The notes: a model not told the origin generated them from the sequence alone. A DNA stretch of 64,000 nucleotides from an uncultured Chloroflexia bacterium (GCA_963776545.1 CAVZND010000011.1:99487-163486); one strand, 5' to 3'; shown: positions 28,069-52,247, numbered from the stretch's first letter. Numbers and translations are program-made.

Positions 28069-29306
28069 CCGATCCCGCGCCGCTTCTCGAACACGACCTG
28101 CAGATCCTGGCTGATCCCGGTCGCGAAGCCTGCCTCGCTCAGTGCGAGGTAGTACTCCCACATCCGGATGAACCGGTCGTCGAACCCCATCCGCCGGACG
28201 GACTCGAGCTGGGCCATGAACCGCGTCCGCCAGGCCCGCAGCGTCAGCACGTAGCTGGGGCCGATGTCTGTCACGCCGCGGACCAACAGCCGGGTGTCGC
28301 GGGTCGCGCGTTCGATGACCGAGAGCGATGGGCAGAGACCGCCCGGGAAGATGTACGTCTGGATCCAGTTGGCCCCCCGGCGCTGCGTCTCGTAGGCGGC
28401 GTCCGGGAACGTGATCGACTGGAGGCTCATCCGCCCGCCTGGGACCAGCGCCGCGTCGCAGGTCCGGAAGAATGTCTCGAAGTACTCGGCGCCGACCGCC
28501 TCGAGCATCTCGATCGAGACGATCGCATCGTACGTGCCGCTGATCTCGCGGTAGTCGCGCAGCTGGACATCGATGAGGCCGTCGAGACCCGCGTCGCGGA
28601 CGCGCTCGCGGGCGAGCTCGAACTGCTCACGCGAGATCGTGATCGAGGTGACACGGCAGCCGATCTCGCCGGCGGCATACAGGGCGAACCCGCCCCATCC
28701 GGTGCCGATCTCCAGGACGTGGTCGCCTCGGGTCAGGCCCGCCCCCTCGGCCACGAGCCGGTACTTGTTGCGCTGAGCGTCGGCGAGGGACTGGTCGGGC
28801 GATGCGAAGACCGCGCTCGAGTAGGTCATGGTCTCGTCCAGGAACAGCCGGTAGAAGTCGTTGCCGAGATCGTAGTGGGCGGCGATGTTGCGCTGGCTCT
28901 GCCGGCGGGTGTTGCGCCGCAATCGATGGGCAAGCGTCCGTCGGAGCTGGGCGGGCACGCGCCACCAGCCACTCGACAACGCCAGCGCCTCTCGATTCAA
29001 GGCGGCAACGCGCAGGAGAACTGCCAGGTCCGGGCTCGACCAGAGACCGTCCATGTACGCTTCGCCGCCGCCGGTCTCGCCGCCGACGAGCATCCGGACG
29101 AGCGCCTTGCGGTCATGGATGCGGATCTCGCCCCGTTCCGGCGCCGTCGGGTCGCCGAAGACCTGGCTCGATCCGTCGGGGAGCACGACGGTCAGGGCGC
29201 CGACGCGGATGCGGGCCAAACCGGCCAGCCCGATGCGCCAGGCGATGCGTGCAAGGAATGAGTCGTCGGTCGCGGGAGCGCCTCCCGCAGTGATTCGCGT
29301 GTTCAT
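28065..29306 (-). CDS. cfa: cyclopropane-fatty-acyl-phospholipid synthase family SAM-dependent methyltransferase
   Basis: SAM motif VLEIGTGWGGFALYAA and the CFA-synthase family layout (NIAAHYDLGNDFY...). ATG 29306 overlaps the DUF1365 stop (ATGA). Confidence 0.9.
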   Translation of the reverse strand: MNTRITAGGAPATDDSFLARIAWRIGLAGLARIRVGALTVVLPDGSSQVFGDPTAPERGEIRIHDRKALVRMLVGGETGGGEAYMDGLWSSPDLAVLLRVAALNREALALSSGWWRVPAQLRRTLAHRLRRNTRRQSQRNIAAHYDLGNDFYRLFLDETMTYSSAVFASPDQSLADAQRNKYRLVAEGAGLTRGDHVLEIGTGWGGFALYAAGEIGCRVTSITISREQFELARERVRDAGLDGLIDVQLRDYREISGTYDAIVSIEMLEAVGAEYFETFFRTCDAALVPGGRMSLQSITFPDAAYETQRRGANWIQTYIFPGGLCPSLSVIERATRDTRLLVRGVTDIGPSYVLTLRAWRTRFMAQLESVRRMGFDDRFIRMWEYYLALSEAGFATGISQDLQVVFEKRRGIG

Positions 29307-30043
29307 CGCGTGGCAGCTCCATGTCGATGGAAGGCGGCCCCGCGCCGCCACAGCCGCAGGGCATGCCAGTGGATGAGCCCGATCGTCTTCTGGGTGACGA
29401 AGGGGTGACGGACGAGCATCCGCGCGACGGCCCGATCCGTGAGCGGCCGGCGGGTGAGGTCGAGGCTTGTGTGCAGGAGCAGTTCGCTAGCCTGGTCCTC
29501 GTTGATCGAGATCCGTAGTCGCCCCGGCTCGTCGCGGACTCGGACCGTGTAGCGCCCGACCATCTCGATGAAGGGCGAAACGTAGAAGTCCTTGTCCATC
29601 GAGGCCGCGAAGTCAAGCTCGTTCGTCGGGCGGCGGAGGGTGTACAGGTGCCGTTCGCGATAGGTGTTGTGGACCTCGACGATGACGACCTGCAGCTCGC
29701 CGGCAGCATCCCGGCATAGATAGAAGCTCGCCGGGTTGAAGACATAGCCGAAGACCCGCAGGTTGGCGATGAGGGTGATCCGCCATCCGTCCGGATCGAT
29801 CCCCTCCGTTCGAAGGAGCGCGCGGGCCGCCTCGGACAGATCCACCGCCGGCGGGGCCAAGTGGTCCCCGTCCCGGAACGAGAGGAGATTGGGCCGGTTG
29901 CGGCTGACGAGCCGGACCTTGCGGGGCACCACATCGAGCTCATCGAGATCAAGCGCGACGTAGTAGACGTCGTGCTCGAGCGCGTACACGAACGGACGGG
30001 CGCGGCGGTGGCGCACCTTGCCCTCGAGCAAATGCGACCTCAC
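29303..30043 (-). CDS. DUF1365 domain-containing protein
   Basis: [32 protein letters not shown]... is the typical DUF1365 N-terminus. GTG 30043 overlaps the upstream stop (GTGA). Confidence 0.88.
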
Positions 30044-31311
30044 GCCGCACGCTCCTGGACGGCCGGTAACAGCAGCTCGGCTACCTCGAATCCGGATCGA
30101 CAACCGTCCTCGTGGAACCCGTAGCCAAGGTGGGCCCCGGCGTAGAAGGTGCGCCGTCGGCCCTGGAGTTCCCGTACGGCCCCCTGGGCATCCAGCGTGC
30201 GGAACGTGTAGAGCGGGTGACTGAAGCTCCGTTCCACGAGGACGCGCTCCCGATCCACCCGGTCGCCCGAATTCACTGATGTGAAGTACTGGACCGGCCC
30301 TGGCAGCGACTGCAACCGGTTCATGTGGTACGTCATAGCGAGCCCTTCGCCCGGTCGCCGGCAGTCCGCCTGGTCGACGTTCCAGGAAGCCCAGGCACGA
30401 CGTCGCCGGGGCATGAGCCGGGCGTCCGTGTGGAGCGTGACCTGGTTCCTGTTGTACTCGAATGCCCCGAGGACGGCTCGCTCGTGCGGATCGGCATCGC
30501 GCAGGACCGCCAGCGCGTCATCCGCATGCGTCGCGATGACGACCGCGTCGAACCGTTCGGTTGCGCCGGCGGCTGTCATGACGGTGACCCCCAGGTCGTC
30601 GCGAACCACGCCGACGACCGCATCCCCGGACCGCACCGACCCCGCCGGGAGCGCGGCGACGATGCGCCGGACGTACGCCATCGAACCACCGCTGATCGTC
30701 CGCCACTGGAAGGATCGGCCGACCCCGATCAGGCCGTGGTTGTCGAGGAACCGCAGGAGATAGTCGATCGGGAAGTCGAGGATCCGCTCCGGCGCCGTCG
30801 ACCACACCGCCGAGGTGATCGGGATGATGAAGTGGTTGCGGAAGCCCGACCCGTAGCCACCGTCGTCGAGGAAGTCGCCCAGCGTGGCGCGCGACAGCGT
30901 GTTCGCGTCGAGAAGCCGCCGAGCCTCGCCGTAGAACCGCAGGACATCCGTGATCATCCGCCAATGGGAGGGACGGACGACCGAATCGGTTCGCGCGAAA
31001 TAGCCGCGCGCACCGCGCGAGCTGAAGGCCACGCGACAGGCATGGCAAGCGGAGCCCAGGGACATGTCGCTCGGCTGCGTCTCCACGCCGAGTTCGGCCA
31101 GGAGTCCGGTGAAGCGCGGGTACGTGCGTTCGTTGTAGACGATGAATCCGGTGTCGACGGGAATGGCCCCACCATCGGCTTCCACGGGTACGGTCTTGAC
31201 ATGCCCGCCGACCGCCGGTTCCGATTCGAACAGCCGGACCTCGTGGTCCGTCCGCAGAGCGTATGCGGCGGTCAGCCCGCTCACGCCGCCCCCCACGACG
31301 GCGATCCTCAT
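30040..31311 (-). CDS. NAD/FAD-binding amine-oxidase-like oxidoreductase (partner of DUF1365/CFA synthase)
   Basis: ATG 31311 ([19 protein letters not shown]...[10 protein letters not shown] dinucleotide fold). The N-terminal 380 aa of listed ORF 30040..32460 is antisense to the SDR gene. Confidence 0.9.
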
Positions 31312-31781
31312 GACGGGTCCGCCTGGAACTGGCCACCCGCGGTATCGGCCCGAGCGTCGAGGGCGCGCTGCATCCCGGCGAGCGCATCGCGGCCAAGCTT
31401 CGCGAACGCCCGACCGAGGAACGGCTGGACGAGCCGCAGGACGCCGCCCAACCGGATGTCGGCCGAGTAGTCGATCCGGGTGCCGCTCCCGGATGGTTCG
31501 AAGCGGATCTCGTCGACCGCCGAGACCCCCGAACCCTGCCCCACGAGGACGACCCGGTGGGGCGGCTGGAAGGTGGAGATCCGGTACTCCATCGGGGCGA
31601 CCCGGCCCCCAAGTCGGACATCCAGTCGATAGCGGGCGCCGAGCCCGACAGGGCCGTCGTCGATCCGTTCGGAGGTGACGGTGCCGGGGTCCCAATGCAT
31701 CGCGTTCGCGAAGTCCGCGATGAAGGCGAACGCCGCCTCCGGTTCCAGCGGCGTTTCGATGTGCTCGGTGATCCTGGTCAC
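31308..31781 (-). CDS. SRPBCC family (polyketide cyclase/dehydrase-like) protein
   Basis: [30 protein letters not shown]... SRPBCC pattern. GTG 31781. Its stop overlaps the next ATG (ATGA at 31308-31311). Confidence 0.8.
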
Positions 31782-31867
31782 GGTCGACTCCGATCCGGGT
31801 GATACTCGGGCGCACGGGGGACCCATCCGGACCAAGCGATGGCCGGTCCGCCGGTGCGATCCGAGAG

Positions 31868-32866
31868 GTGTTGGTGGACGTCAGGACGCTCATCGACGGC
31901 GGCCTCGAGATGTCGGTCGTGGCGAGCTTCAGTCGGGTAGGCATCGCCGTTCGCCGACGGCTGTTCCGCTGGACTGCGCCACCGGCCGATGCGCTCGCGG
32001 GCCGGACGGTCCTGATCACGGGCCCGACGTCCGGCCTGGGCCGTGCGGCGACGGAAGCTTTCGCCGGACTCGGGGCGCGCGTGATCCTCGTCGGCCGCAG
32101 CCGGGAACGGCTCACAGCGGTTCGGGATGCCCTCGTGGCCGTCCACGGCGAGGACCGCTTCCCGATCGTCGTGGCCGACATGGGCTCGCTCGACTCGGTC
32201 CGCGCGGCCGTCGAGCGCGTGCTGGCCACCGAGTCGCGGCTCGACGTCCTCGTCGACAACGCGGGCGCGATCTTCCCCGAACGGACCGACGGGCCGGACG
32301 GGATCGAGGCCACCCTGGCGACCCTGGTCGTGGGGCCCTTCACCCTCGTGTCGGGCCTCCTGCCGCTGCTCCGGCAGACCGAGGGATCGCGGGTCATCGC
32401 CGTGACCTCGGGTGGCATGTACACGCAGGGCGTCCGCTTTGACGACCTGCAGTGGGTCACCGAGCCGTTCTCGGGCCCGCGGGCCTATGCCGGCGCCAAG
32501 CGGATCCAGGTCGCGCTCATGCGGGAGTGGGCGCGTCGGCTTACGCCGTCCAACGGCTCGTCCGGCATCACCGTCAACGCGATGCATCCCGGTTGGGCCG
32601 ACACGCCGGGACTCGCCGAGGCCCTGCCGGGCTTCTATCGCTTGATGGGTCCGGTCCTCCGAACCCCGGCCGAAGGGGTGGACACGCTCGTGTGGCTGGC
32701 TGCGTCGCCCGAAGCCGGAGTGCGGAGCGGCGAACTCTTCCTGGACCGCCGCCCGAGGCCCTTCGACCGCTTCCCGGGGACGCGTCTCTCGCCCGTCGAT
32801 CGCCGACGTCTTTGGCGAATGGTCGTGGAGTTGTCCGGTGTGCCCGACCCCCTTCCCGAAGGCTGA
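31868..32866 (+). CDS. SDR family oxidoreductase (DHRS12-like)
   Basis: [10 protein letters not shown] cofactor motif, NAG, and catalytic YAGAKR. Divergent from the SRPBCC operon. GTG 31868 chosen; ATG 31910 is an alternative. Confidence 0.88.
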
Positions 32867-33040
32867 GGCGGCGAACCTCGACGAAACCGCGCTGGGGGCA
32901 TGGTTTGCGGACACGGCGATAGGCGTGGTCTTCGGCTCGGATCGGCGATCCACTGACGGGGACTCCTGGTCGTGAACGAGGTGGCTCCGGGCCCCCTCGA
33001 GTCGAGGTTGGTGTTCACCCTTTGTTTAAGGTATGCCGAA

Positions 33041-33090
33041 CTGTAGCGGCAGTGTCCAGGGATTGTCAAGCTATTCTGGGTGCGTATACT
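33041..33090 (+). promoter_or_regulatory. promoter of the CarH/LitR gene with 11-bp-phased TGT repeats (candidate CarH operator); near-leaderless
   Basis: -35 TTGTCA (33063-33068), 16-nt spacer, -10 TATACT (33085-33090), ATG at 33100. TGT recurs at 33042, 33053 and 33064. tTGTcaAgcTa matches the reverse complement of the CarH direct-repeat pattern nAnnTnnACAn as I recall it. Confidence 0.45.
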
Positions 33091-33099
33091 CAACAAAGC

Positions 33100-34053
33100 A
33101 TGTACACAATCAAACAGGCCGCGGCCCGCACCGGCCTCAGCGTCCCGGTCATCCGGGTCTGGGAGCGCCGGTATGGCGTCGTGCAGCCGAGCCGTACTCC
33201 GGCCGGCTACCGGCTCTACGACGAGGAGTCGATCGCCCGCCTGGCCGCGATGCGCCGATTGGTCGCCGAGGAGGGCTGGCAGCCAAGGCAAGCGGCGCAA
33301 CGGGTGCTCGAGCCTGGGTTCGATCCGCTGGAGGCAGTCGGCGAAAGCGCGGGCCGGGCCGATCGGGCCGGATCGTCGATCGGCTTGGTCACCGGCGTCG
33401 GGCAGCGAGATCAAGAGGTGTCGCTAGTGCGCGCGTTCGTCGCCGCGGCCCACGACCTGGACGTTCCGGCCATGGAGCGGATCCTTGACGAGGGATTCGC
33501 GTCCCATCGCTTTGAGCTGGCGATCGAGGCTCTTGTCTCTCCGGCAATGCGAGCTATCGGCATCGCCTGGGCCCAGGACGAGATCGACGTCGGCGCTGAA
33601 CATGCGGCGAGCGAAACGGTCCGACGACGGCTGGCGCGCTTCTACGATGCGGCCGGGCTCGGTGACCGGGTACCACGTGTGGTCGTCGGCCTGCCCCCGG
33701 ATGGGCAGCACGAGATCGGGGCATTCGCCTTCGCCGTGGCCACCCGGCGGGCCGGGCTCGAAGTGCTCTATCTCGGTGCGAACGTGCCGCTGGAGAGCTG
33801 GCTCCGGACCGTCGATGAGACCATGGCGCCGGTCGTCGTCATGGGGGTGGTGACGCCGTCCGATGTCGTAGCGGCGGGCGTCGTGATCGACGCGCTCGGC
33901 CAGTCAGCCAGATCGCCGATCTGCCTCGTCGGCGGCCCGCTGTCCGCCGATTCGCTCGGCGGACTCGAGACCATCCGCCTTCCGACGCCACTCGACGACG
34001 CGGTGGCGGCGGTGGCCAGGCTCCTCGGCTCCGACGAACGGGCCCCCCGCTGA
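33100..34053 (+). CDS. MerR family, cobalamin-binding light-responsive transcriptional regulator (CarH/LitR type)
   Basis: MerR HTH (MYTIKQAAARTGLSVPVIRVWERRYGVVQPSRTPAGYRLY). B12-binding_2 helix bundle with W-x9-EH (AWAQDEIDVGAEH). B12-binding Rossmann domain with the His loop (PPDGQHEIG). Confidence 0.9.
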   Translation: MYTIKQAAARTGLSVPVIRVWERRYGVVQPSRTPAGYRLYDEESIARLAAMRRLVAEEGWQPRQAAQRVLEPGFDPLEAVGESAGRADRAGSSIGLVTGVGQRDQEVSLVRAFVAAAHDLDVPAMERILDEGFASHRFELAIEALVSPAMRAIGIAWAQDEIDVGAEHAASETVRRRLARFYDAAGLGDRVPRVVVGLPPDGQHEIGAFAFAVATRRAGLEVLYLGANVPLESWLRTVDETMAPVVVMGVVTPSDVVAAGVVIDALGQSARSPICLVGGPLSADSLGGLETIRLPTPLDDAVAAVARLLGSDERAPR

Positions 34054-34093
34054 GGCGACCCTGGTGTCAGGACGCCGGAGCGGCGTGCGTCCA

Positions 34094-34960
34094 TCACGGG
34101 ACCGGTCGAGCGCCGCGTCCCCTCAGCGCTTGGATCAAGTCGCCAAGCATTCGCGGGTCCGGGACCCATCCGTCCGCGCCGAGATCTAGCGCCGCCCGCT
34201 CGTCGGGGATCGCGTGTCCGCCGACCAACCGTGGAACCGACGGCCGTTCCCGACGGGCGGCGGCCAAGAGGCGCCCGGCTGCCGGTCGACGCTCGCTGTC
34301 GACGACACTCACGATGACCGCGGCCAACGATCCTGCATCGTGCATCGCAGCGGCAAACGACGCCGTCGGAGTGTCGGGGCCCAGGTTGAGGACGCCATAT
34401 CCGGCGTGGGCGAGGATGTCGGCGAGCATCGCGACCCCGAGTCCGTGACGTTCGCCGGGCGGCATCGCCACGATGACGACGCCCTTCTTGCGGCCTGGGC
34501 GCGCGAAGCGCGGGCCCAGGCGTCCGATCAGCGTCGCAGCCACACTGCTCGCGAGATGCTCCTGGTCGATGGAGATGTCGCCCGATCGCCACGACGCCCC
34601 GATGTCGCGGAGCGTCGGCGTGAGGATGCTCACGTAGATCTCGCCTGGCTCGAGTCCCGAGGCCATGGCCGCTTCGACGACTTGCCAGCTGCCCGCCGCG
34701 TCGCCGCTGAGCATTCGCGCCTGGAGACGCTCCTGCCAGGTCGATACCCGCGGATGACCAGTCCCGCGGCGGCGACGACCACGGTCGGGCGTTGTGGTCG
34801 TCCGCTCGAGATCGGCGGGATCGACCATCCACGTTCCGCCGACCTTCCGTGCCGGCAGGATCCCCAGCCGAACGCGCCGGTAGATCGTCATGTAGTGGAC
34901 GCCGACGCGTTCGGCCGCCTCGTGCAGGCTGAGATGACCGGACGCGTCGGATGGGGTCAA
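34094..34960 (-). CDS. excisionase-type HTH + cobalamin-binding domain protein (second CarH-type photoreceptor candidate)
   Basis: HTH (LSLHEAAERVGVHYMTIYRRVRLGILPARKVGGTWMV), W-x9-EH (SWRSGDISIDQEH), His loop (PPGERHGLG). TTG 34960 overlaps the heliorhodopsin stop (TTGA at 34957-34960). Confidence 0.85.
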   Translation of the reverse strand: MTPSDASGHLSLHEAAERVGVHYMTIYRRVRLGILPARKVGGTWMVDPADLERTTTTPDRGRRRRGTGHPRVSTWQERLQARMLSGDAAGSWQVVEAAMASGLEPGEIYVSILTPTLRDIGASWRSGDISIDQEHLASSVAATLIGRLGPRFARPGRKKGVVIVAMPPGERHGLGVAMLADILAHAGYGVLNLGPDTPTASFAAAMHDAGSLAAVIVSVVDSERRPAAGRLLAAARRERPSVPRLVGGHAIPDERAALDLGADGWVPDPRMLGDLIQALRGRGARPVP

Positions 34961-35727
34961 CCCGCCAGCGTCCCCGCGAACACCTGCCAGGCGAGCGCCG
35001 ACTTCGCGACCAGGCTGAGCATGAAATAGGCCCTCTCGCCGAAGACGTACGACTGCCAGCGACCGACCCGCCGGTACTGGAGCCACATGTTAAGCGCGAA
35101 TATGTTGAAGAAGACGAAGAGCGAAAGGAAGATCGCGTAGACGAAGGCGGGCGGCTCGGCCGCACTTCCTGGTGACCAAAGGTAGACACCAACGGCCAAC
35201 CACGGCGCGATCCCCACGACGCACCCAAGCCAGAACGGCCACAGCGAGCCGCCCGGCCGCTCGTATCGCTCCTGGACCGCACCGAAGAAGATCATCGCTG
35301 CGTTGGCGGCGAAGATGCCGATGAGTGCCGCGACATCGCTGATCCCGGTGAGCATCGCGATGAGCACGATCATCACCGACGATGAGAGCGAGTACTCGGC
35401 CCAGCGAAAGTAGTTGTGCTCCGCCCCCAGTCCGGCGATGTAGCGCCCGAACACGCCGGGCAGCGCCACGAGCCAGTGGAACACGGCCGACAGCAGGAGG
35501 AAGAGGGCGACGCCCCAAGCCACGGAGACTTCGAACAGCGGGATCGGCGCGCTGGCCGGGGTGCCCGGCGGCCCCTCCATGAACGTCGCCGTTACCGGCA
35601 GCGCGAAGGCGGTCGCGAGGGCGAGGACGGCGACGGCCTGGATGGCATGGACGAAGCCCAGCCCGATGTTCCAGCGCCGCAGGGAGGCGGCCCGGGTGAC
35701 AGGGAGGTCCAAGGTTGGCGAGATCAT
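34957..35727 (-). CDS. heliorhodopsin
   Basis: Blocks EGPPGT, SAVFHWLV, FRWAEYSLSSSVMIVLIA, PFWLGCVVGIAPW, FVFFNIFALNMWLQYR and GERAYFMLSLVAKSALAWQVFAGTL (TM7 Lys) match heliorhodopsin 48C12 almost residue for residue as I recall it. ATG 35727 chosen; GTG 35748 (after AAAGGAA) is an alternative. Confidence 0.92.
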   Translation of the reverse strand: MISPTLDLPVTRAASLRRWNIGLGFVHAIQAVAVLALATAFALPVTATFMEGPPGTPASAPIPLFEVSVAWGVALFLLLSAVFHWLVALPGVFGRYIAGLGAEHNYFRWAEYSLSSSVMIVLIAMLTGISDVAALIGIFAANAAMIFFGAVQERYERPGGSLWPFWLGCVVGIAPWLAVGVYLWSPGSAAEPPAFVYAIFLSLFVFFNIFALNMWLQYRRVGRWQSYVFGERAYFMLSLVAKSALAWQVFAGTLAG

Positions 35728-35775
35728 GCGTTGGTCGGTGGCGATCACAGACTGAGTTCCTTTGCATGGGGATGC

Positions 35776-35807
35776 GGGTGGAGCCCGGAGGAGAACGGGC
35801 CCCACCC
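35776..35807 (-). terminator. 12-bp stem hairpin between the fasciclin gene and heliorhodopsin
   Basis: Minus-strand RNA GGGUGGGGCCCG-uucuccuc-CGGGCUCCACCC (one G-U pair). No U-tract. It sits 28 nt after the fasciclin stop and 28-48 nt before the heliorhodopsin start. Confidence 0.45.
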
Positions 35808-35834
35808 TGGGACTGGGCTGGGTGGTTCGCTGGG

Positions 35835-36430
35835 TCAGTCGGCCGGCGGCAGGATGACAGCGTCGATGACGTGGATGACGCCATTGGACGCCAACACGTC
35901 GGCGGTGACGACCTTGGCGCTACCGTTCAGGAAGACGGTTCCGTCCTTGACGGACGACAGCTGATGGGCGATCCCTCGACCGAGTCGGCAGAGGTGAGTC
36001 CGACGACCTTGTCGGCCGTCACGGCCGCGGGGACGACGTGATACAGCAGGACCTTCTTGAGGGCTTCCTTGTCGGCGAGCAACCCCTCGAGCGTGCCGGC
36101 AGGCAGCGCGGCGAACGCCTCGTCGGTCGGGGCGAAGACGGTGAACGGACCGTCGCCCTGGAGCGTCTCCACGAGACCGGCGGCCTTGGCCGCGGTCAGC
36201 AGGGTGGTGAACGAGCCCGCTTCGGTGGCGGTCTCGACGATGTCCTTTGCCATGGCGTCAGCCGACGGCGAAGGCGCCATGCTCGGGGATGCGGCGTTGG
36301 TCGATGCCGGGCTCGGAGTGGACACGACGGTTGGCGCTGCGCTCGGCGACGCGGCGGACGAGCAGGCCGCGATCGCGATCGCGAGCGCTGGCACGAGGAG
36401 GACGATGGATCGCTTCATGGTCGATGACAT
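35835..36430 (-). pseudogene. fasciclin (FAS1) domain lipoprotein, reading frame broken by an apparent 1-nt deletion near 35958-35965
   Basis: Lipobox AIAACSS and FAS1 blocks [13 protein letters not shown] and LLYHVV. ORF 35927..36430 ends in ...[17 protein letters not shown]. The conserved FAS1 C-terminus ([41 protein letters not shown], stop at 35835-35837) continues in another frame. Confidence 0.8.
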
Positions 36431-36479
36431 TCCTTCAGGCTTCGGCTTGTTGTGTCGGGCAGCCCGACGTTGCCCGCGA

Positions 36480-36508
36480 AGTATTTAGCACTAAATACAA
36501 TCTGTCAA
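36480..36508 (-). promoter_or_regulatory. sigma70-like promoter of the fasciclin gene with an embedded 18-bp palindrome
   Basis: Minus strand: TTGACA (36503-36508), 17-nt spacer, AATACT (36480-36485). The palindrome GTATTTAG-ca-CTAAATAC (36481-36498) fills the spacer and -10. A second palindrome GTCGGGCaGCCCGAC (36454-36468) lies in the 5' UTR. Confidence 0.5.
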
Positions 36509-36629
36509 GCATGGCCGTGAGGACGTGTCTTGGATGACGTGGCGGACCGCAGGCGGCGGTCTGGGTCTCGGAGGACGCGCAGCGCACGTGGATCGACGCC
36601 TTGGACGCGAGAGGGCCTAGCCCGTCAGG

Positions 36630-37178
36630 CTGGGCGCCACTTCCGGTCAGTGCTCGACGACCTGCTCCAGGTTGCCGGCCGCCTCGATCCAGGCGGTGAT
36701 CTCGGCCTCGCTCGGTAGACGGCGGACGATCCCAGGCCGGGCGGCGACGACCTCCTGGACGGTCACCGCGAGGTTCGCCGGGTTGCGCTGGGCCAACTCG
36801 GCCGGTGAGCCGACGCCGGCGGCCCCGAGCAGGTCGCTGTACTGCGGCCCGACGCCCGGGACCCGCATGAGATCGACGTTGTCGACCCAATCGAGGATGA
36901 GCTTGCTGCTGATCCCGGTCGCCTCGGCGAGCCGCTCGCGGTCGTATGGCCGAGCACCAGCCGCGAGCAGGTCGTCGGTCGTCCGGATACCCGCGCCGGC
37001 GAGCGTCTCGCCATAGGCCGGTCCGATCCCCTCGACGTCCTCGATCTTCTTCGAGCGGGCGGCTTGGGGCTCCTCGACGTCTGCCGCCGCGACCACGGCA
37101 GGCGGGCGCCTCGACGGGCTCCGGAGCTGCCGCCTCGATCGCGACCGCAGCGACGGCCGCGGCCGCGACAGGAGCCGG
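36630..37178. repeat. 549-bp direct repeat, copy 1 (3' part of a DUF4332 gene plus 17 bp downstream)
   Basis: Aligned by eye to 39839..40386, it differs by 3 substitutions and one 1-nt indel (extra G near 37100-37103). Confidence 0.95.
36647..37096 (-). CDS. DUF4332 domain protein, truncated duplicate (possible gene remnant)
   Basis: The 149-aa ORF is identical to the C-terminus of the 39856..40845 product. It starts at an internal GTG. The upstream Ala/Pro linker remnant is out of frame because of the indel and there is no N-terminal membrane domain. Confidence 0.55.
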   Translation of the reverse strand: MVAAADVEEPQAARSKKIEDVEGIGPAYGETLAGAGIRTTDDLLAAGARPYDRERLAEATGISSKLILDWVDNVDLMRVPGVGPQYSDLLGAAGVGSPAELAQRNPANLAVTVQEVVAARPGIVRRLPSEAEITAWIEAAGNLEQVVEH

Positions 37179-37188
37179 CCACCCCAGG

Positions 37189-38478
37189 TCAGGTACCGTC
37201 GCCGGGGTCGTACAGCTCGACCGCTCGGCTGTTCTTGCTGTAGTCGCCCGCCAGGAGGACCCTGCCGTCGAGGAGCACGGTCGCGCTGTAGCCGACTCGG
37301 GCCCGGACCGGTTTCGCGGTACTGGTCCAGCGGTCGCTGCTCGGGTCGTAGAGCTCTGCGGAGGGAGGCCTGTCCCAGAGGCCCTCATTGACGACGAGCA
37401 CGGTGCCATCCGTCAGGAGCGTCGCCGTGTGGAAGATGCGGGCCGTCCCCATGCTGCCGGTCGCGGTCCATCGCCCGCTGACCGGGTCGTACAGCTCGGC
37501 GGTGGCCCATGCGCCGGGCTCACTGCAGGCGCAACCGCCCGTGACCAGCACCGTCCCGTCGGTCAGGAGCGTCGCCGTGTGACCGAAGCGACCGTCGGCC
37601 ATGCTCCCGGTGGCGGTCCATCGGCCCGTGTCGGGGTCGAACAGCTCCGCGGACGTGTAGCCACCGTCGCCGCCAGCGACGAGGACCCGGCCGTCGGGCA
37701 GCAGCGTCGCGGTGAAGCCCTTGCGAGCCTCGGTCATGCTTGCGATCGTCATCCAGCTACCGGTGATGGGGTCGTACAGCTCAGCGGTCGCGCTTCGCGG
37801 CCCGCCTTCCAGCTCCGTGTCCTCGGCACCGCCGCCCACCACGAGCACCTTCCCGTCGAGCAGCAGCGTGGCGGTGTGTCCACCGCGGCCATGGCGCATC
37901 GTCCCGGTGGCGGTCCATCGCCCCGTGCCCGGGTCGTACAGCTCGGCCGTTGCCAGCGGATCGGCGCTGTTGATGTAGCTGCCCGCCACAAGCACCTTGC
38001 CATCCGGTAGCAGCGTCGCGGTATGCCCCCAGCGGGCCCCCGCCATCTTCCGAGTGGCCGTCCATTTGCCGACGCTCGGGTCGAACAGCTCGGCGGAGGC
38101 GGAAACCTGACCATCCAGTCGGTCGTTGACCAGGCCGCCGGCGACGAGCACGCGGCCGTCGGGGAGCAGCGTCGCCGTGTGATAGGCGTGGGGCGCGATC
38201 ATCTTCCCGGTCGCATGCCACGCAGCGGTCGCGGTCACGGGTGGTGTCACCGGCTGGACCGATGCCGGTGCGATCGATGCCTGCAGGGGGCTCGGGGACG
38301 CTTCGGCGGACCGCACCGAGCTCACCGTCGGCGACGGGTACGGCGACGGCGAGGGTGTCGCGACCGAACCCAGTGACGCCGGCAGAGGCGACGTCGTCGC
38401 ACCGGCAACACATCCGCCCAGCAACGCCAGCGAGGCGAGACCCACCCCGAGTCGTGCGGTCCTCGTGTGACGATGCAT
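37189..38478 (-). CDS. Kelch-repeat (7-bladed beta-propeller) lipoprotein
   Basis: ATG 38478 after GGAGG. Lipobox LLGGC. Seven regular repeats of the form HTATLLPDGxVLVAGG...AELYDPxTGxWTATGxM. Confidence 0.88.
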   Translation of the reverse strand: MHRHTRTARLGVGLASLALLGGCVAGATTSPLPASLGSVATPSPSPYPSPTVSSVRSAEASPSPLQASIAPASVQPVTPPVTATAAWHATGKMIAPHAYHTATLLPDGRVLVAGGLVNDRLDGQVSASAELFDPSVGKWTATRKMAGARWGHTATLLPDGKVLVAGSYINSADPLATAELYDPGTGRWTATGTMRHGRGGHTATLLLDGKVLVVGGGAEDTELEGGPRSATAELYDPITGSWMTIASMTEARKGFTATLLPDGRVLVAGGDGGYTSAELFDPDTGRWTATGSMADGRFGHTATLLTDGTVLVTGGCACSEPGAWATAELYDPVSGRWTATGSMGTARIFHTATLLTDGTVLVVNEGLWDRPPSAELYDPSSDRWTSTAKPVRARVGYSATVLLDGRVLLAGDYSKNSRAVELYDPGDGT

Positions 38479-38602
38479 CGCGTCTGCCTCCGGGTCCACC
38501 CCGAGCGCCTTCGATCGCCTGGTGCTTTCGAGCCTAGGACGCGTCGCCGGGTCGGATGTTTCGGCCGGTCGCGTGCGTCACAGCGAGTCGTAGGATGCAA
38601 CG

Positions 38603-39793
38603 GTGCGGCGCTTGCTGGACCAAGCCCTGTCCATCGCGGCGGAGGCGGGCGACGACGACGATCTGCGCCTTCGCAAGCGCGTGGCCGTCATCGCCGGCTA
38701 CGTCACGATCGGTGCTGTCCTCATCCTCCCACTCGTTGGGACCGCGACCTTCCTGACGGTGGTCGCGGCGCTCGCGATCGCGATGGCCATGGCGGGCAAC
38801 CTCATCCTCCTCGCCCGCACGCGTCGCTTCACCCGCTTCGTCATCGTGAGCTTGTTGGCGGGAGCCGCCTACACGCTCTTCGCCGACACTGCCGAGGGAG
38901 GACTCGCAGCCTCCGGAGGCTGCGTCGTCTGGGCGTTGCTGATCCCCGTATTCGCCATCCTGTTCCTCGGCCCACGGCAAGCGATCCCGTGGTACGGGCT
39001 CTTCGTTGGCGTCCTCGTGACGATCATCCTCATCGATCCGCTGGTGAGCGCTCGACCGGCGCCAGCCCCGTACTGGATCCAGCTGACCTACTGGTTCGAG
39101 AACATCGCGGTGCCGGGAACGATCATCTTCCTCCTCCTCCGATACACGGACATCCGGCGTCTCGGCGCCCAGGCCCGGTCGGACGAGCTCCTGACCAACG
39201 CCATCCCGGCCTCGATCGCCGCGCGACTCAAGCACGGCGAACAACGGATCGCGGAACGGTATTCGGATACGACCATCCTGTTCTCGGACATCGTCGGTTT
39301 CACCCCGTGGGCGCTTCGAACCGATCCGGACCGGGTCGTTGCCCTCCTGGACCAGCTCTTCACCAGCTTCGACGAGCTGGCTTCCACGCACGGCATCGAG
39401 AAGATCAAGACCATCGGCGACGCGTACATGGCCGCCTCCGGTGCGCCGGAGGCGCGGTCAGACCACGCGGAAGCAGCCCTGGCGATGGCGTCCGCCATGC
39501 TCGTCGCGTTCAACGACTGGCGAGCGGACAATGCGCCGGACTTGGCCCTGCGCATCGGGCTCGCATCAGGAGACGTCGTGGCGGGGGTCATTGGGGAGCA
39601 GCGCGCCCAGTTCGACCTGTGGGGTGACGCGGTCAATCTCGCCTCCCGCATGGAGGCGACCGGGGTGCCCGGGCGGATCCAGGTCGCGCAGTCGACATGG
39701 GCGCTGTTGCGCGATCGGCATGCGTTCGAGGCGCGGAAGCCGATGGAGATCAAGGGGCTGGGCCTGACGCCGACCTACCTGCTCGCGCCGTGA
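38603..39793 (+). CDS. membrane-anchored class III adenylate/guanylate cyclase
   Basis: 6 TM helices, then a cyclase homology domain (TILFSDIVGFT...KIKTIGDAYMAASG...RIGLASGDVVAGVIG...DLWGDAVNLASRME). GTG 38603 lies 6 nt after TAGGAT, so the transcript is possibly leaderless. Confidence 0.9.
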   Translation: MRRLLDQALSIAAEAGDDDDLRLRKRVAVIAGYVTIGAVLILPLVGTATFLTVVAALAIAMAMAGNLILLARTRRFTRFVIVSLLAGAAYTLFADTAEGGLAASGGCVVWALLIPVFAILFLGPRQAIPWYGLFVGVLVTIILIDPLVSARPAPAPYWIQLTYWFENIAVPGTIIFLLLRYTDIRRLGAQARSDELLTNAIPASIAARLKHGEQRIAERYSDTTILFSDIVGFTPWALRTDPDRVVALLDQLFTSFDELASTHGIEKIKTIGDAYMAASGAPEARSDHAEAALAMASAMLVAFNDWRADNAPDLALRIGLASGDVVAGVIGEQRAQFDLWGDAVNLASRMEATGVPGRIQVAQSTWALLRDRHAFEARKPMEIKGLGLTPTYLLAP

Positions 39794-39838
39794 TCGCTTG
39801 GTCGGGATCGCCCGCCCGCGAGGCGCTCAAGCACACGC

Positions 39839-40386
39839 CTGGGCGCCACTTCCCGTCAGTGCTCGACGACCTGCTCCAGGTTGCCGGCCGCCTCGATCCA
39901 GGCGGTGATCTCGGCCTCGCTCGGTAGACGGCGGACGATCCCAGGCCGGGCGGCGACGACCTCCTGGACGGTCACCGCGAGGTTCGCCGGGTTGCGCTGG
40001 GCCAACTCGGCCGGTGAGCCGACGCCGGCGGCCCCGAGCAGGTCGCTGTACTGCGGCCCGACGCCCGGGACCCGCATGAGATCGACGTTGTCGACCCAAT
40101 CGAGGATGAGCTTGCTGCTGATCCCGGTCGCCTCGGCGAGCCGCTCGCGGTCGTATGGCCGAGCACCAGCCGCGAGCAGGTCGTCGGTCGTCCGGATACC
40201 CGCGCCGGCGAGCGTCTCGCCATAGGCCGGTCCGATCCCCTCGACGTCCTCGATCTTCTTCGAGCGGGCGGCTTGGGGCTCCTCGACGTCTGCCGCCGCG
40301 ACCACAGCAGCGGGCGCCTCGACGGGCTCCGGAGCTGCCGCCTCGATCGCGACCGCAGCGACGGCCGCGGCCGCGACGGGAGCCGG
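39839..40386. repeat. 548-bp direct repeat, copy 2 (within the intact DUF4332 gene)
   Basis: See copy 1. The period is 3209 bp. Confidence 0.95.
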
Positions 40387-40845
40387 AGCGGCGACCGGTG
40401 GTGCGACCGGCGCTGGCGCCGGAGCGACGGGCGGCGCAGCCGCCGCCTGCGCGGGCGCCCGCTCGCCGAAGGCCGCCTTGACTTCAGCGGTCATCAGGTA
40501 CCAGAGGATGACTCCGGGCATGAGCGCCATCGCGAAGCCGACGCCGGTGCCGGGGAAATGGAGGAATGCCAGCCCCGCCTCGAGGAGCGCGAAGGCTGCA
40601 ACGACGATCGCGAAGATGCGAGCCCACTGCTGGAGTGCCCAGAGACCCCCGGCCACGAGCAGCCAGACGATCCCGGTGGCAACGGCAAGCCAGCCCCAGA
40701 GTCCGACGTTCTCGAAGGCGGGAAGGTCGCCGAGCGCCCCGAACCAGTCGAAGCCGAGGAGCTGGATGCCGAAGAACAGGAGACCGAAGCCTGCTAAGGC
40801 CGCGAAGAAGCCAAGGATCGCGATCAGGATGGGCGGGTTCTTCAT
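39856..40845 (-). CDS. membrane protein with Ala/Pro-rich linker and C-terminal DUF4332 (helix-hairpin-helix-like) domain
   Basis: ATG 40845 (MKNPPILIAILGFF...). 4 TM helices, an APAPAPVAPPVAAPAP linker, then a DUF4332-type block IEDVEGIGPAYGETLAGAGIRTTDDLL...LMRVPGVGPQYSDLL. Confidence 0.85.
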   Translation of the reverse strand: MKNPPILIAILGFFAALAGFGLLFFGIQLLGFDWFGALGDLPAFENVGLWGWLAVATGIVWLLVAGGLWALQQWARIFAIVVAAFALLEAGLAFLHFPGTGVGFAMALMPGVILWYLMTAEVKAAFGERAPAQAAAAPPVAPAPAPVAPPVAAPAPVAAAAVAAVAIEAAAPEPVEAPAAVVAAADVEEPQAARSKKIEDVEGIGPAYGETLAGAGIRTTDDLLAAGARPYDRERLAEATGISSKLILDWVDNVDLMRVPGVGPQYSDLLGAAGVGSPAELAQRNPANLAVTVQEVVAARPGIVRRLPSEAEITAWIEAAGNLEQVVEH

Positions 40846-41008
40846 CGGTGGGTCCTTTCGGCACTGCCAACGCGCGCCAACGTGGGGCGAACGACCGCCG
40901 GCTTCCGTCTCCGCAAGTCTCCGGCGGACACCACGAATACTAGACAACCAGACCGCTCGCGTGCACGAGCGCCGCCCATGATCGTGACGCTCGTGGCACC
41001 GTAGCCCG

Positions 41009-41674
41009 GTGAACACCGCGCGAGCCGCCGCCCTGCCCGAGACCGCGCTCTACGGCCCCGTGAAGGCGCTGCTCGAGGCCCAGGGGTACGACGTCAAGGG
41101 CGAGATCGTCGGCTGCGACGTCGTCGGCGTCCGGGACGACGAACCGCCGGTGGTCGTTGAGCTGAAGCGCACCTTCGGGCTCGCACTCGTGCTCCAGGGC
41201 ATCGACCGGCTGGCGATGACCGATGCTGTCTACCTCGGCGTCGGAGCATGGCCGAGCCGGCCCGCCGCCGTCCGGCGACTTTGCCGTCGCCTCGGTCTGG
41301 GGCTCATCGTGATCGCCGACGGCCGCGCCGAGGCCGTGCTGGATCCGCTGCCGTACCGGCCGCGCAAGACCCGAGCTCGAACGGCGCGTCTGCTCGATGA
41401 GCACCGCCGGCGGGTCGGCGATCCGACCAGCGGTGGCTCGGTTCGGCGACCGATCATGACCGCGTACCGGCAGGAAGCGCTGCGCTGCGCCGCCCGGCTC
41501 GAGGCCGGTCCGGCGACACCGCGCGCCATCCGAGCCGAGGGCGACGCGCCGCATGCGGGCCGGATCCTGCGATCGAACGTCTACGGCTGGTTCGAGCGGG
41601 TCGGACGCGGCGTCTACGCCCTGACGCCTCAGGGACGACGCGCCCTCGAGGACGACCTGGCTGGCGGGACATGA
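41009..41674 (+). CDS. DUF2161-like protein (nuclease-fold N-domain plus winged helix)
   Basis: ETALYGPVKALLEAQGYDVKGEIVGCDVVGVRDDEPPVVVELKRTF resembles a PD-(D/E)xK-like core. The C-terminal part resembles wHTH. Its stop overlaps the next ATG. Confidence 0.7.
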   Translation: MNTARAAALPETALYGPVKALLEAQGYDVKGEIVGCDVVGVRDDEPPVVVELKRTFGLALVLQGIDRLAMTDAVYLGVGAWPSRPAAVRRLCRRLGLGLIVIADGRAEAVLDPLPYRPRKTRARTARLLDEHRRRVGDPTSGGSVRRPIMTAYRQEALRCAARLEAGPATPRAIRAEGDAPHAGRILRSNVYGWFERVGRGVYALTPQGRRALEDDLAGGT

Positions 41675-46351: not shown

Positions 46352-47944
46352 ATGCCACACCCGCGCCGCACCGTGTTCGCCCTCACCCTCGTGCTCGTCA
46401 CGCTCGCGATCGTGCCGCCGGCGAGCGTCGCCGCCGCGGGACGCTTCACGGACGACAACGGATCGCGCTACGAGAAGGCGATCGAGGCGGTCGCCGCCGT
46501 GGGGGTGATGCCCGGCTGCACGACCCGCCACTTCTGCCCCAAGACCGTGGTCACCAAGGGCAAGCTGGCCGTGTACCTCGCTCGCGCGCTCCACCTGAAG
46601 GCGACCGTCAAGATCAAGTTCCGCGACGTCCCGAAGTCGCAGAGGACCGGGGTGAAGAGGGTCGTGGCGGCCGGCATCATGAAGGGCTGCGCCACGACGC
46701 GCTTCTGTCCGAAGACGGCGATCACCCGGGGACGGATGGCCGCCTACCTGGTCAAGGCGTTGCACCTGACGGCCATCGGCAAGGGCAAGTTCAAGGACGT
46801 CCCGAAGCGACACAAGTACGCCAAGGCCATCGATCGTCTCGCGACGGCCGGGCTGGCCGTCACGTGTCGGAAGAGCCACTTCTGTCCGGACCGCAAGATC
46901 ACCCGGGCCGAGACCGCCGCGTTCCTGGCCAAGGTCATGGCACGGACCGTCGTCACCCCGCCGCCCCCACCGCCGGGCAACCCGGGTGGTGGGGCAACGA
47001 TCCCGCCGGAAGCGCAGCCCGTGGATACGACGCATCCCGACCACGTCGTCGGAACGGGCACCCCGGCGAGCTGCACCGGCGCGGCGGTCGCGGCAGCGGT
47101 CGCCCAGGGCGGGATCATCACGTTCGCGTGCGGCCCGAACCCGGTGACGATCCCGATGACCGTGACCGCCAAGGTCTTCAACGACCGGCCCGACGTCGTC
47201 CTCGACGGAGGCGGCCTCGTCACGCTCGACGGACAGGGCGCCCGCCGGATCCTGTACCAGAACACCTGCGACCCGGCGCAGGTCTGGACCACGAGCCACT
47301 GCCAGGACCAGGCCAGCCCGGTCCTGACGGTGCAGCGCCTCGTCTTCGCCAACGGCAAGGCGTCGGGCACGGAGACGATGGACGGCGGCGGGGCGATCTT
47401 CGTCCGCGGGGGGCGGTTCCGGGTGATCGACAGCCAGTTCTACGGCAACCGCTGCGCCCCGACCGGGCCGGATGTCGGCGGCGCCGCGATCCAGGTCTTC
47501 TCGCAGTACCAGGGCCTCCCGGTCTATGTCGTCCGGAGCACCTTCGGTGGGGCTGGAGCCCTGCGCAACGAATGCTCGAATGGCGGCGCCATCTCGAGCA
47601 TCGGCGTCTCCTGGACGATCCTCGACAGCCGGTTCGAGGGCAACAACGCGATCGGCACCGGCGCCAATCCGGCGAAGGCCGGGACGCCGGGCGGCGGCAA
47701 CGGCGGGGCCATCTACAACGACGGCAACGAGATGCTCCTGCACGTGGAAGGCACAGTCATCGAGGGCAACACCTCGAACCACGAGGGCGGGAGCGCGATC
47801 TTCTTCGTGAGCAACAACCGGTCGGGCTCGGTCGAGATCGTCGACTCGACCCTTCGCAACAACACCGGCGACGGCTTCTCGACCCACCCGGGAATCTTCT
47901 TCCTGGGCGACTCGATCACGTTCGTCAACTCGACGGTGGAGTAG
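46352..47944 (+). CDS. secreted surface protein: three SLH-like repeats, poly-Pro linker, right-handed beta-helix (pectin-lyase-fold-like) domain
   Basis: Signal peptide. Three ~55-aa repeats (F[TRK]D[DV]...GCxTxxFCPKTxxTRGxxAxYLxxAL). PPPPPPGNPGGG linker. Repeated GGAI(F/Q/S/Y) turns. Confidence 0.85.
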   Translation: MPHPRRTVFALTLVLVTLAIVPPASVAAAGRFTDDNGSRYEKAIEAVAAVGVMPGCTTRHFCPKTVVTKGKLAVYLARALHLKATVKIKFRDVPKSQRTGVKRVVAAGIMKGCATTRFCPKTAITRGRMAAYLVKALHLTAIGKGKFKDVPKRHKYAKAIDRLATAGLAVTCRKSHFCPDRKITRAETAAFLAKVMARTVVTPPPPPPGNPGGGATIPPEAQPVDTTHPDHVVGTGTPASCTGAAVAAAVAQGGIITFACGPNPVTIPMTVTAKVFNDRPDVVLDGGGLVTLDGQGARRILYQNTCDPAQVWTTSHCQDQASPVLTVQRLVFANGKASGTETMDGGGAIFVRGGRFRVIDSQFYGNRCAPTGPDVGGAAIQVFSQYQGLPVYVVRSTFGGAGALRNECSNGGAISSIGVSWTILDSRFEGNNAIGTGANPAKAGTPGGGNGGAIYNDGNEMLLHVEGTVIEGNTSNHEGGSAIFFVSNNRSGSVEIVDSTLRNNTGDGFSTHPGIFFLGDSITFVNSTVE

Positions 47945-48007
47945 CTCCCGTGATCAGGAAGCGAGCAAGGCCTCGGGGCCGCACCACGCGAACCCCGACG
48001 TGACGTC

Positions 48008-48642: not shown

Positions 48643-48661
48643 CTCGGATCGACCTCCAATA

Positions 48662-52243: not shown

Positions 52244-52247
52244 CGGC

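Follow-up and report, generated by a model that had tools for sequence, protein, structure and literature searches.

A segment of about 549 nt from the 3' end of a membrane-tethered DUF4332 gene is present twice in the genome of an uncultured Chloroflexia bacterium, and the two copies bracket the genes of a Kelch-repeat putative lipoprotein and a membrane-anchored cyclase. This arrangement is probably the product of a real, very recent and lineage-specific partial gene duplication, i.e. a real but ordinary genome rearrangement. The stretch of DNA analyzed here (the window; GCA_963776545.1, CAVZND010000011.1:99487-163486) comprises 64,000 nucleotides, and the following features are numbered from its first letter.

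36480..36508, minus strand: promoter-like site of the fasciclin-heliorhodopsin operon
36624..36629: hexamer GTCAGG, directly adjoining copy 1 on its left
36630..37178: first copy of the repeat (copy 1, 549 nt), comprising 16 nt of 3' flank, the DUF4332 ORF and an Ala/Pro-linker remnant of 82 nt
36647..37096, minus strand: 149-aa ORF, complete DUF4332 / tandem helix-hairpin-helix domain (Pfam E 1.7e-32)
37097..37178, minus strand: Ala/Pro-linker remnant, non-coding as assembled, with three of the four differences between the copies
37189..38499, minus strand: Kelch-repeat putative lipoprotein, 7 repeat units (Pfam, DNA periodicity)
38603..39793, plus strand: membrane-anchored class III adenylate/guanylate cyclase (Pfam PF00211, E 9e-55)
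39839..40386: second copy of the repeat (copy 2, 548 nt), comprising the 3' part of the intact 4TM-linker-DUF4332 gene and 16-17 nt past its stop codon
39856..41016 (maximal ORF), minus strand: intact parent gene with 4 TM helices, Ala/Pro linker (~70 aa) and DUF4332
36645 (copy 1) / 39854 (copy 2): difference 1, G/C
37097 (copy 1) / 40306 (copy 2): difference 2, G/A
37101 (copy 1): difference 3, extra G
37170 (copy 1) / 40378 (copy 2): difference 4, A/G

Structure of the repeat

Repeat search, pairwise alignment and base-by-base comparison yield two copies in direct orientation which differ by three substitutions and one single-base indel (99.3% identity). The count made by eye in the initial annotation, which had described a near-identical 549-bp direct repeat, was hereby found to be exact. 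Such a match is far above chance expectation, and a whole-genome self-comparison returned only a handful of repeats of this kind. Both ends are sharp, with mismatches at 36629 vs. 39838 and at 37179 vs. 40387, and the outer flanks cannot be aligned. The copies thus show the hallmarks of a segmental duplication: the same orientation, near-identity, abrupt ends and a divergence far below that of orthologues.

All four differences are located outside the 453 nt of the ORF with its stop codon (P about 0.001; largest-gap test, P = 0.005), and the perfectly identical core common to both repeats is 450 nt long. This placement was unexpected, as it is not predicted by simple duplication followed by neutral drift. 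One of four factors has to be invoked: gene conversion, selection, chance, or a clustering of consensus errors in the linker, which is repetitive and GC-rich.

Parent gene and truncated copy

The probable start of the parent gene is the ATG at 40845 (329 aa), where its orthologues and a TM-only paralogue also begin, and its DUF4332 domain is recognized with a Pfam E-value of 1.6e-31. In copy 1 the 149-aa ORF starts at a GTG, an internal Val codon of the parent gene, is 100% identical to the parent along its entire 453 nt and covers positions 1-121 of 122 of the Pfam model (PF14229). The extra G at 37101 shifts the frame and leaves the linker remnant out of frame with the ORF, while two substitutions in the remnant would be synonymous if read in the parental frame. 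Alignment, Pfam and frame comparison therefore bear out the earlier description of copy 2 as the 3' part of an intact 4-TM/linker/DUF4332 gene, and of copy 1 as a DUF4332-only ORF with an internal GTG start, a complete domain and a linker thrown out of frame by the indel. Since 82 nt of linker are kept upstream of the ORF, the alignment shows copy 1 to be derived from the fused gene and not from an old stand-alone DUF4332 lineage.

Copy 1 is predicted to encode a complete, foldable DUF4332 domain of the size found in natural stand-alone DUF4332 proteins: in the AlphaFold model, residues 17-149 have pLDDT values of 72-87 and residues 1-13 are disordered. A Foldseek search gave no significant PDB match (best E-value 0.08), the matches being of a generic HhH type only (NusA AR domains, RadA N-terminal domain, PolQ/Hel308), and a sequence search of the PDB returned nothing at E < 0.1. 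The sole Shine-Dalgarno-like motif of the ORF is a weak GAGG 12 nt upstream, unlike the strong GGAGG-type sites that precede the natural stand-alone DUF4332 gene and the TM-only paralogue. Because it does not have a good ribosome-binding site, copy 1 is probably an inert or barely expressed fragment. The ORF is possibly co-transcribed with the Kelch gene, since no terminator-like site was found between the two. A Kelch-DUF4332 fusion created by frameshift was considered and rejected, as the two frames disagree whether or not the extra G is counted.

An exact-protein look-up returned no record for the 149-aa ORF. Proteins of 149 aa annotated as DUF4332 in public databases (P0001, P0002, P0009) were rejected as independent copies, since they stem from full-length genes that frameshifts have broken up in other MAGs. 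Natural stand-alone DUF4332 proteins of 134-135 aa are abundant; the same genome encodes one of 135 aa (C21:116211-116618) and a TM-only protein of likewise 135 aa (C1:149573-149980).

The bracketed gene pair

The segment between the repeats (37179-39838, 2660 bp) holds, as had been proposed, a 7-unit Kelch lipoprotein gene on the minus strand and a membrane class III cyclase gene on the plus strand. The Kelch protein has a signal peptide and an LGGC lipobox-like motif; the probable true start of its gene is the ATG at 38478, which is preceded by a GGAGG Shine-Dalgarno motif, and 10 nt separate its stop codon from the right end of copy 1. An exact-protein look-up of the Kelch protein gave no record. 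The cyclase domain sits behind about 6 hydrophobic helices, and its gene is oriented away from the Kelch gene and towards the intact DUF4332 gene, the latter two pointing at each other. Since these two genes fill the 2660 bp, no room is left for a transposase or integrase; together with a repeat search that found no terminal inverted repeats, this agrees with the reported lack of transposase, integrase and inverted terminal repeats. In GC content and codon bias, the pair does not stand out from its surroundings. In the genus, relatives of the Kelch and cyclase proteins are 56-67% identical, compared to 81-88% for the neighboring fasciclin, heliorhodopsin and SLH-like surface-protein genes, which suggests that the pair consists of accessory genes.

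Comparison with related genomes

Of the 130 further genomes of the genus that were searched, not one shows the arrangement of repeat, gene pair and repeat or carries two copies of the DUF4332 gene, and the arrangement is likewise missing from the metagenome contigs found. The closest orthologue of the parent gene among them shares 84% DNA identity. A scan of metagenome contigs with the parent protein retrieved only distant relatives (at most 67% identity over the full length) and no contig of the same species. With copies at least 99.3% identical and the layout absent from the relatives searched, the event appears specific to this lineage and also young, the latter as the initial annotation had suggested; the locus comparison gave no sign of the opposite situation, in which two old genes would each be conserved independently.

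The repeat is located in a stretch of species-variable gene content. Here, the order is parent DUF4332 gene, cyclase, Kelch, copy 1, fasciclin, heliorhodopsin, HTH-B12, MerR-B12 and SDR, with DUF2161 and MalT-like regulator genes as further neighbors. In one relative (G112) and in the ENA contig L066, the parent-gene orthologue is followed by PGA_cap/DUF308 filling ~5.7 kb, MerR-B12 and SDR, while another genome (G093) has the same gene blocks in a different order. The genes upstream of fasciclin and downstream of the parent gene vary in each relative examined, the first bases 3' of the stop codon differ among the parent-gene orthologues, and the left ends of both repeat copies fall at synteny breakpoints. 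Conservation with relatives stops at about 36511-36577, and hence ~50-120 nt of lineage-specific DNA precede copy 1. In a further genome (G006), a Kelch orthologue (61% amino acid identity) is also found beside the heliorhodopsin cluster.

A figure of Trichococcus heliorhodopsin operons lists a DUF4332 gene (PMC9769723). Across the phylum, only 1 of 30 sampled heliorhodopsin loci showed a DUF4332 match within ±1.5 kb, namely that of the present genome, the other 29 being devoid of it, and no DUF4332 domain was found at the heliorhodopsin loci of the genus. A functional link between DUF4332 and heliorhodopsin is thus not supported.

Origin of the repeat

In the duplication that we propose, the terminal 549 nt of the membrane-tethered DUF4332 gene were copied, without a change of strand, to a site at a distance of 2.66 kb. 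They include the DUF4332 domain in full, the stop codon with the 16 nt that follow it, and a portion of the Ala/Pro linker. This piece now lies directly downstream of the Kelch stop codon, which gives the order repeat, Kelch (minus), cyclase (plus), repeat. Provided that the feature is real, our preferred though tentative route is that a break or a stalled fork captured a nearby template in one step, either by template switch or by Ku/LigD end-joining; genes for Ku and RecA are present in the genome. According to this route, the parent gene and the fasciclin-heliorhodopsin operon would already have flanked the Kelch-cyclase pair, and the expected traces of the capture are a GTCAGG duplication of 6 bp and a 9-nt filler. 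Indeed, the GTCAGG hexamer on the left of copy 1 is seen again at 37188-37193, where it contains the Kelch stop codon and is set off from the copy's right end by 9 nt (37179-37187). The two hexamers may represent a target duplication of 6 bp, with these 9 nt as filler. The chance of this recurrence is about 0.013 (range about 0.01-0.06), yet the test is post hoc and the argument a weak one.

A less likely alternative is that the newcomer was not the 549-nt piece but the Kelch-cyclase pair, the parent gene having formerly been placed directly upstream of the fasciclin-heliorhodopsin operon. Hereby, DNA of a related strain carrying the 3' part of the gene beside Kelch and cyclase would have recombined in, be it by Campbell-type integration of a circle, by homology-facilitated illegitimate recombination, or by a 3209-bp tandem duplication followed by deletion, and the two repeats would be partly allelic, from two strains. 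The coincidence of both left ends with synteny breakpoints, the different make-up of the stretch from the parent gene to MerR-B12 in G112 and L066, in G093 and in the present genome, and the low identity of the Kelch and cyclase relatives compared to those of the neighboring genes are in line with such a history. Moreover, related strains may coexist in the sample, since contig ends in the bin overlap at 93.9% identity. However, the parent gene adjoins the fasciclin operon in no genome searched, a 3.2-kb circle without replication or integration functions would be an extra ad hoc step, the pair resembles its surroundings in GC content and codon bias, and the Kelch orthologue of G006 likewise lies near a heliorhodopsin cluster.

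Returning to the duplication of the 549-nt piece, the question arises whether its product is functional. We consider it rather improbable that copy 1 is a new, soluble stand-alone DUF4332 gene which arose by domain fission and is kept identical by selection or gene conversion, and slightly more improbable still that such a fission has been caught in the act, with the gene co-transcribed with Kelch and situated shortly upstream of the heliorhodopsin operon. The avoidance of the ORF by all four differences would fit a functional gene, as would an ORF that is predicted to hold the entire domain and nothing else foldable, the abundant stand-alone proteins with one example in this very genome next to a TM-only paralogue, and the possible co-transcription with the Kelch gene. 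Yet the ORF has a GTG start and a weak, badly spaced SD-like motif, such a copy is conserved in no relative, and three of the differences fall into the repetitive, error-prone linker. Furthermore, the complete lack of differences, even of synonymous ones, points to youth or gene conversion instead of purifying selection. If domain fission did occur, it would show the interconversion of fused and split DUF4332 forms across the genus.

Assembly quality

The source genome is a soil Chloroflexota MAG of 22 contigs (85.6% complete) which bears the marks of a Nanopore-only assembly, with ~6 candidate frameshifts per 100 kb of conserved coding DNA, among them one tuf copy and the adjoining fasciclin gene. 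As this long-read MAG is error-prone, the one-base indel has to be read with caution: the indel, and perhaps also the linker substitutions, may be consensus errors. Some contig ends in the bin overlap, at 99.98%, 99.5% and 93.9% identity. The related genomes are Nanopore metaFlye MAGs (dataset methods in PMC12313526). The incompleteness, the overlapping contig ends and the frameshifts, including those in tuf and the adjacent fasciclin gene, would all be compatible with an artefact in which chimeric reads or a mixture of strains led the long-read metagenome assembler to create the additional copy, or even the entire path of repeat, unit and repeat. On indirect grounds, we nevertheless regard this as very unlikely, since the assembler would have had to create two novel junctions precisely and then resume the collinear sequence, the copies are not identical, and the bin holds no alternative contig for the locus. 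Judging from the design of the assembler and from the methods given for the relatives' dataset (PMC12313526), the repeat should lie below typical long-read overlap thresholds and single reads of several kb should span the 3.2-kb repeat unit. In addition, the assembly resolved longer repeats elsewhere, perfect ones included: two tuf copies of 1213 bp as well as 798-bp and 330-bp perfect in-frame repeats.

Finally, an old paralogue pair kept near-identical by gene conversion is hardly credible: differences confined to the repeat edges would suit a conversion tract and the two tuf genes (99.2% identity over 1213 bp) offer a precedent, but the ends are abrupt without a diverged shoulder on either side, a second copy is found at either position in no relative (0/130 for the two-copy layout), and the non-coding linker remnant is unlikely to have been kept for long.

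Consequences

Given that RecA is present, recombination between the repeats is a plausible route to loss or amplification of the Kelch-cyclase pair. From general recombination biology, a RecA-dependent exchange could excise a 3209-bp unit made up of one repeat and the Kelch and cyclase genes, thereby regenerating one intact DUF4332 gene beside the fasciclin promoter, or, if unequal, amplify that unit. The direct repeats would make it easy to lose or amplify the pair, which sits in a variable stretch beside the light-sensing cluster. The finding touches no open question and is of use chiefly for annotation and quality control: the appropriate label for the 149-aa ORF is that of a recent partial duplicate and not of an independent DUF4332 gene, and the other 149-aa DUF4332 "proteins" of public catalogues derive from frameshifted full-length genes. 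It also provides a small, clean example of how partial duplication can yield a stand-alone domain gene.

Comparison with known systems

Several known types of element do not apply. An integrase-mediated island is rejected, as no recombinase is encoded inside the 2660 bp or among the neighbors (fasciclin, heliorhodopsin, DUF2161, MalT-like regulator). The same holds true for a composite transposon or IS-bracketed unit, since the repeat encodes DUF4332 alone and lacks terminal inverted repeats, and for a diversity-generating retroelement, as there is no reverse transcriptase gene and the differences (G/C, G/A, A/G and an indel) are not confined to adenines and none of them falls within the coding part.

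Partial duplications that leave direct repeats are classic substrates of RecA-dependent deletion and amplification in Salmonella and E. coli. The present locus resembles them in its near-identical direct repeats of a few hundred bp around a few kb, one truncated gene, the presence of RecA and the lack of involvement of mobile-element genes. It differs in that one interval with two repeats is seen here without amplification, and in that it appears to have formed through illegitimate joints and not through pre-existing repeats such as IS elements or rrn operons. Some islands and prophages insert themselves at a gene's 3' end and supply a replacement for it; e14 and phage 21 in icd are examples, as are the tRNA-gene islands. 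They share with our locus an intact gene at one end, a displaced partial 3' copy at the other and accessory genes in between; here, however, there is no integrase or recombinase, the bracketed segment holds just two ordinary genes, and the 549-bp repeat is several times longer than att-site repeats. The tuf pair of the same genome likewise represents near-identical direct repeats in one contig (about 99.2-99.3% identity for the two cases), but is ancient and widely conserved, whereas the DUF4332 repeat is found in this genome only, among those searched.

With the stand-alone DUF4332 (PF14229) proteins, whose genes often diverge from a DUF853/HerA-like ATPase gene, copy 1 shares a complete domain (Pfam 1-121/122), a similar length and 65-72% identity. 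Unlike these, it has neither a strong ribosome-binding site nor a DUF853 neighbor, and no orthologous stand-alone copy occurs at this position in the relatives. Its full identity to the fused form, together with the linker remnant, shows its descent from that membrane-tethered form.

Structure of the repeat and of its coding content

The repeat consists of two directly oriented copies whose starts lie 3209 nt apart and which enclose 2660 bp (37179-39838). Similarity between the copies stops sharply at either end, the flanking DNA being unalignable.

Features of the repeat region
36630-37178, direct orientation: repeat copy 1, 549 nt
36647-37096, minus strand: copy 1 ORF, 149 aa; its GTG start is an internal Val codon of the parent gene
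37189-38499, minus strand: Kelch-repeat putative lipoprotein, seven repeat units; stop 10 nt from copy 1
38603-39793, plus strand: membrane class III cyclase
39839-40386, direct orientation: repeat copy 2, 548 nt
39856-41016, minus strand: parent ORF (DUF4332 gene) in its longest form; its 3' end is copy 2

Differences between the copies
36645 G (copy 1), 39854 C (copy 2)
37097 G (copy 1), 40306 A (copy 2)
37101, additional G in copy 1 alone
37170 A (copy 1), 40378 G (copy 2)

Base-by-base comparison (n = 4 differences) reproduces exactly the coordinates of both copies in the initial annotation as well as its count of three substitutions and one 1-nt indel. The annotated content of the enclosed segment, the Kelch and cyclase genes, likewise stands, and the segment holds nothing else. 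The longest Kelch ORF probably overshoots the true start, likely an ATG at 38478 with a GGAGG motif.

In the parent product, four hydrophobic helices are followed by an Ala/Pro linker some 70 residues long and, at the C-terminus, by a DUF4332 domain (PF14229, E = 1.6e-31; HHH_5 is matched too); as initially read, copy 2 is the 3' part of an intact gene. Translation of the parent gene probably begins at the ATG at 40845 (329 aa) rather than at the start of the longest ORF, since orthologues and the TM-only paralogue start there and an AAGGA motif lies upstream; with this start, the gene no longer seems to overlap the DUF2161 gene at 41009. From the charge distribution we infer that both termini are cytoplasmic.

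As initially read, the copy 1 ORF keeps only the DUF4332 domain, which is complete (E = 1.7e-32). An AlphaFold model (26 homologues) is all-helical over residues 17-149 (pLDDT 72-87), with residues 1-13 disordered; in the PDB the domain has no significant match, only generic helix-hairpin-helix domains turning up. Upstream of the GTG, copy 1 retains 82 nt of parental linker, which the extra G puts out of frame, as had been proposed, and this remnant holds no usable start codon even when the extra G is removed. Reading of the Kelch frame into the remnant was rejected, the frames being incompatible. The sole Shine-Dalgarno-like motif of the ORF is GAGG, 12 nt 5' of the GTG. If translated at all, the ORF would yield in soluble form a domain that is otherwise membrane-tethered.

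The source genome also encodes a natural stand-alone DUF4332 protein of 135 aa (G000:C21:116211-116618, plus strand), divergent from a DUF853/HerA-like ATPase gene, and a natural 4-TM-only protein of 135 aa (G000:C1:149573-149980, plus strand). Both genes have strong, well-spaced Shine-Dalgarno sites (GAGGAGG and AAGGAGG, respectively), and both halves of the fused gene are thus present separately as natural genes.

None of the four differences touches the 453-nt ORF plus stop, a placement with a chance probability of (96/549)^4, about 0.0009; in a largest-gap test P is 0.005. Both calculations are post hoc. Both linker substitutions are synonymous if read in the parental frame. This placement could reflect gene conversion of the interior, a clustering of consensus errors in the repetitive linker, chance, or selection on the ORF; selection on a working gene is disfavored by the weak translation signals.

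Age and conservation of the duplication

The source genome is a 22-contig MAG of 3.16 Mb (85.6% complete), in which these two are the only near-identical copies; a third match, 73% identical, is the natural stand-alone DUF4332 gene. Among 130 other genus genomes the parent gene is matched at 84% DNA identity at best, and two copies or the repeat-unit-repeat layout occur in none of the 130. A scan of metagenome contigs gave nothing above 67% to the parent over its full length. The locus comparison across relatives suggested in the initial annotation revealed no old, independently conserved second copy.

Searching protein sequences yielded proteins of 149 aa with 83-87% identity to copy 1, seemingly the independently conserved copies that the initial annotation named as refuting. 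These, and one 134-aa match, were rejected as independent genes: in other long-read MAGs, frameshifts in the GC-rich linker have split full-length genes, and the matches are the resulting C-terminal pieces. On three ENA contigs of other MAGs (L065, L066, L067), the public 134-149 aa "DUF4332 proteins" are such pieces of 4TM-linker-DUF4332 genes. Short public DUF4332 gene calls of this kind stem from Ala/Pro-linker frameshifts and are an annotation artefact that arises systematically in long-read MAGs.

The linker remnant shows that copy 1 arose from the fused gene, as opposed to the old stand-alone lineage (65-72% identity). With no second copy in the genus genomes and 84% for the best orthologue, the duplication is young and, as far as the data reach, private to the source lineage. 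The recent segmental duplication or insertion proposed initially is thus supported by the near-identity of the copies versus 84% for the best match in the genus.

Genomic surroundings

A fasciclin - heliorhodopsin - HTH-B12 block with its promoter region is kept in relatives up to about 36511-36577, past which the neighbours vary in every examined genome. The source genome, genus genome G112 (locus L049) and ENA contig L066 share the outer flanks, with the parent gene on one side and MerR-B12 and SDR genes on the other. Between these flanks, the latter two carry about 5.7 kb of other genes (PGA_cap, DUF308), and the source genome carries cyclase, Kelch, copy 1, fasciclin, heliorhodopsin and HTH-B12 (33022-41016 compared). 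In a further genus genome (G093:C3), blocks of 1015-17386, 28065-36430 and 46352-52691 occur in different order. The differing fillings and block orders place the repeat in a variable stretch, and the left ends of both copies are synteny breakpoints.

Assembly quality

The relatives are Nanopore-only MAGs ("uncultured Chloroflexia bacterium MFD..."), assembled with metaFlye and polished once with Medaka (PMC12313526). The source genome bears the same hallmarks: overlapping contig ends, longer perfect repeats that are resolved, and frameshifts. Contig ends overlap between C4 and C10 (5.8 kb at 99.98%), C4 and C7 (7.6 kb at 99.5%) and C19 and C20 (8.3 kb at 93.9%), the last suggesting that the bin or sample contains another related strain or species. 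Perfect in-frame internal repeats occur in two secreted repeat proteins, of 1069 aa (G000:C14:49861-51792; 798 bp, spacing 1134) and 700 aa (G000:C13:268711-269790; 330 bp, spacing 750).

Candidate frameshifts number about 6 per 100 kb of conserved coding DNA (about 102 kb alignable to relatives), at C1:231670, C9:4905, C13:320970, C15:54880, C20:60620 and C11:135446; the genes affected by candidate frameshifts include fasciclin, at about 35960, and one tuf copy. This rate fits a Nanopore-only assembly and calls for caution with single-base indels genome-wide. The fasciclin ORF (35927-36430, minus strand) is shortened by a frame change at about 35958-35965, across which three relatives align in two frames (G000:C11:135440-135446), consistent with indel errors in the source MAG. 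Outside the window, two tuf (EF-Tu) copies (G000:C12:256620-257833 and C12:239974-241184) are 99.2% identical; the copy downstream of fusA has two insertions, +2 at about 257094 and +1 at about 257549, so that about 150 codons are read in the wrong frame until the original one resumes, either a consensus error or an odd pseudogene. The extra G at 37101, and perhaps the linker substitutions, may also be consensus errors, and the true copies could be even nearer to identity.

That the assembly created the repeat structure itself is unlikely: at 549 nt and a period of 3.2 kb, the repeat should lie below long-read overlap thresholds and be spanned by single reads, and misassembly would then require two precise false junctions.

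Route of formation and classification

Copy 1 is adjoined on its left by GTCAGG (36624-36629); a second GTCAGG, 9 nt beyond its right end (37188-37193), includes the Kelch stop. The chance of this recurrence is about 0.013 (post hoc). Ku and RecA are both encoded in the source genome. Provided the feature is real, we tentatively favor, at somewhat under even chances, a one-step event in which a break or stalled fork just past the Kelch stop would have captured a nearby template, leaving a 6-bp duplication and 9 nt of filler. Arrival of the Kelch-cyclase segment through recombination with related-strain DNA is a less probable, still serious alternative; a tandem duplication of the 3209-bp unit with a later deletion is unlikely, and other routes are slightly more so. 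A crossover within the 450-nt identical core would remove Kelch, cyclase and one repeat while regenerating an intact parent gene, and unequal exchange would amplify the 3209-bp unit.

A Trichococcus operon figure hints at a functional link between DUF4332 and heliorhodopsin (PMC9769723). This link was not supported by 30 heliorhodopsin loci sampled across the phylum, of which one, that of the source genome itself, has DUF4332 within 1.5 kb.

As initially stated, transposase, integrase and inverted terminal repeats are absent. An integrase island, a composite transposon and a diversity-generating retroelement were rejected, as the features that define them are lacking. The overall reading of the initial annotation is supported, and the repeat is of a kind already known, an ordinary partial gene duplication.
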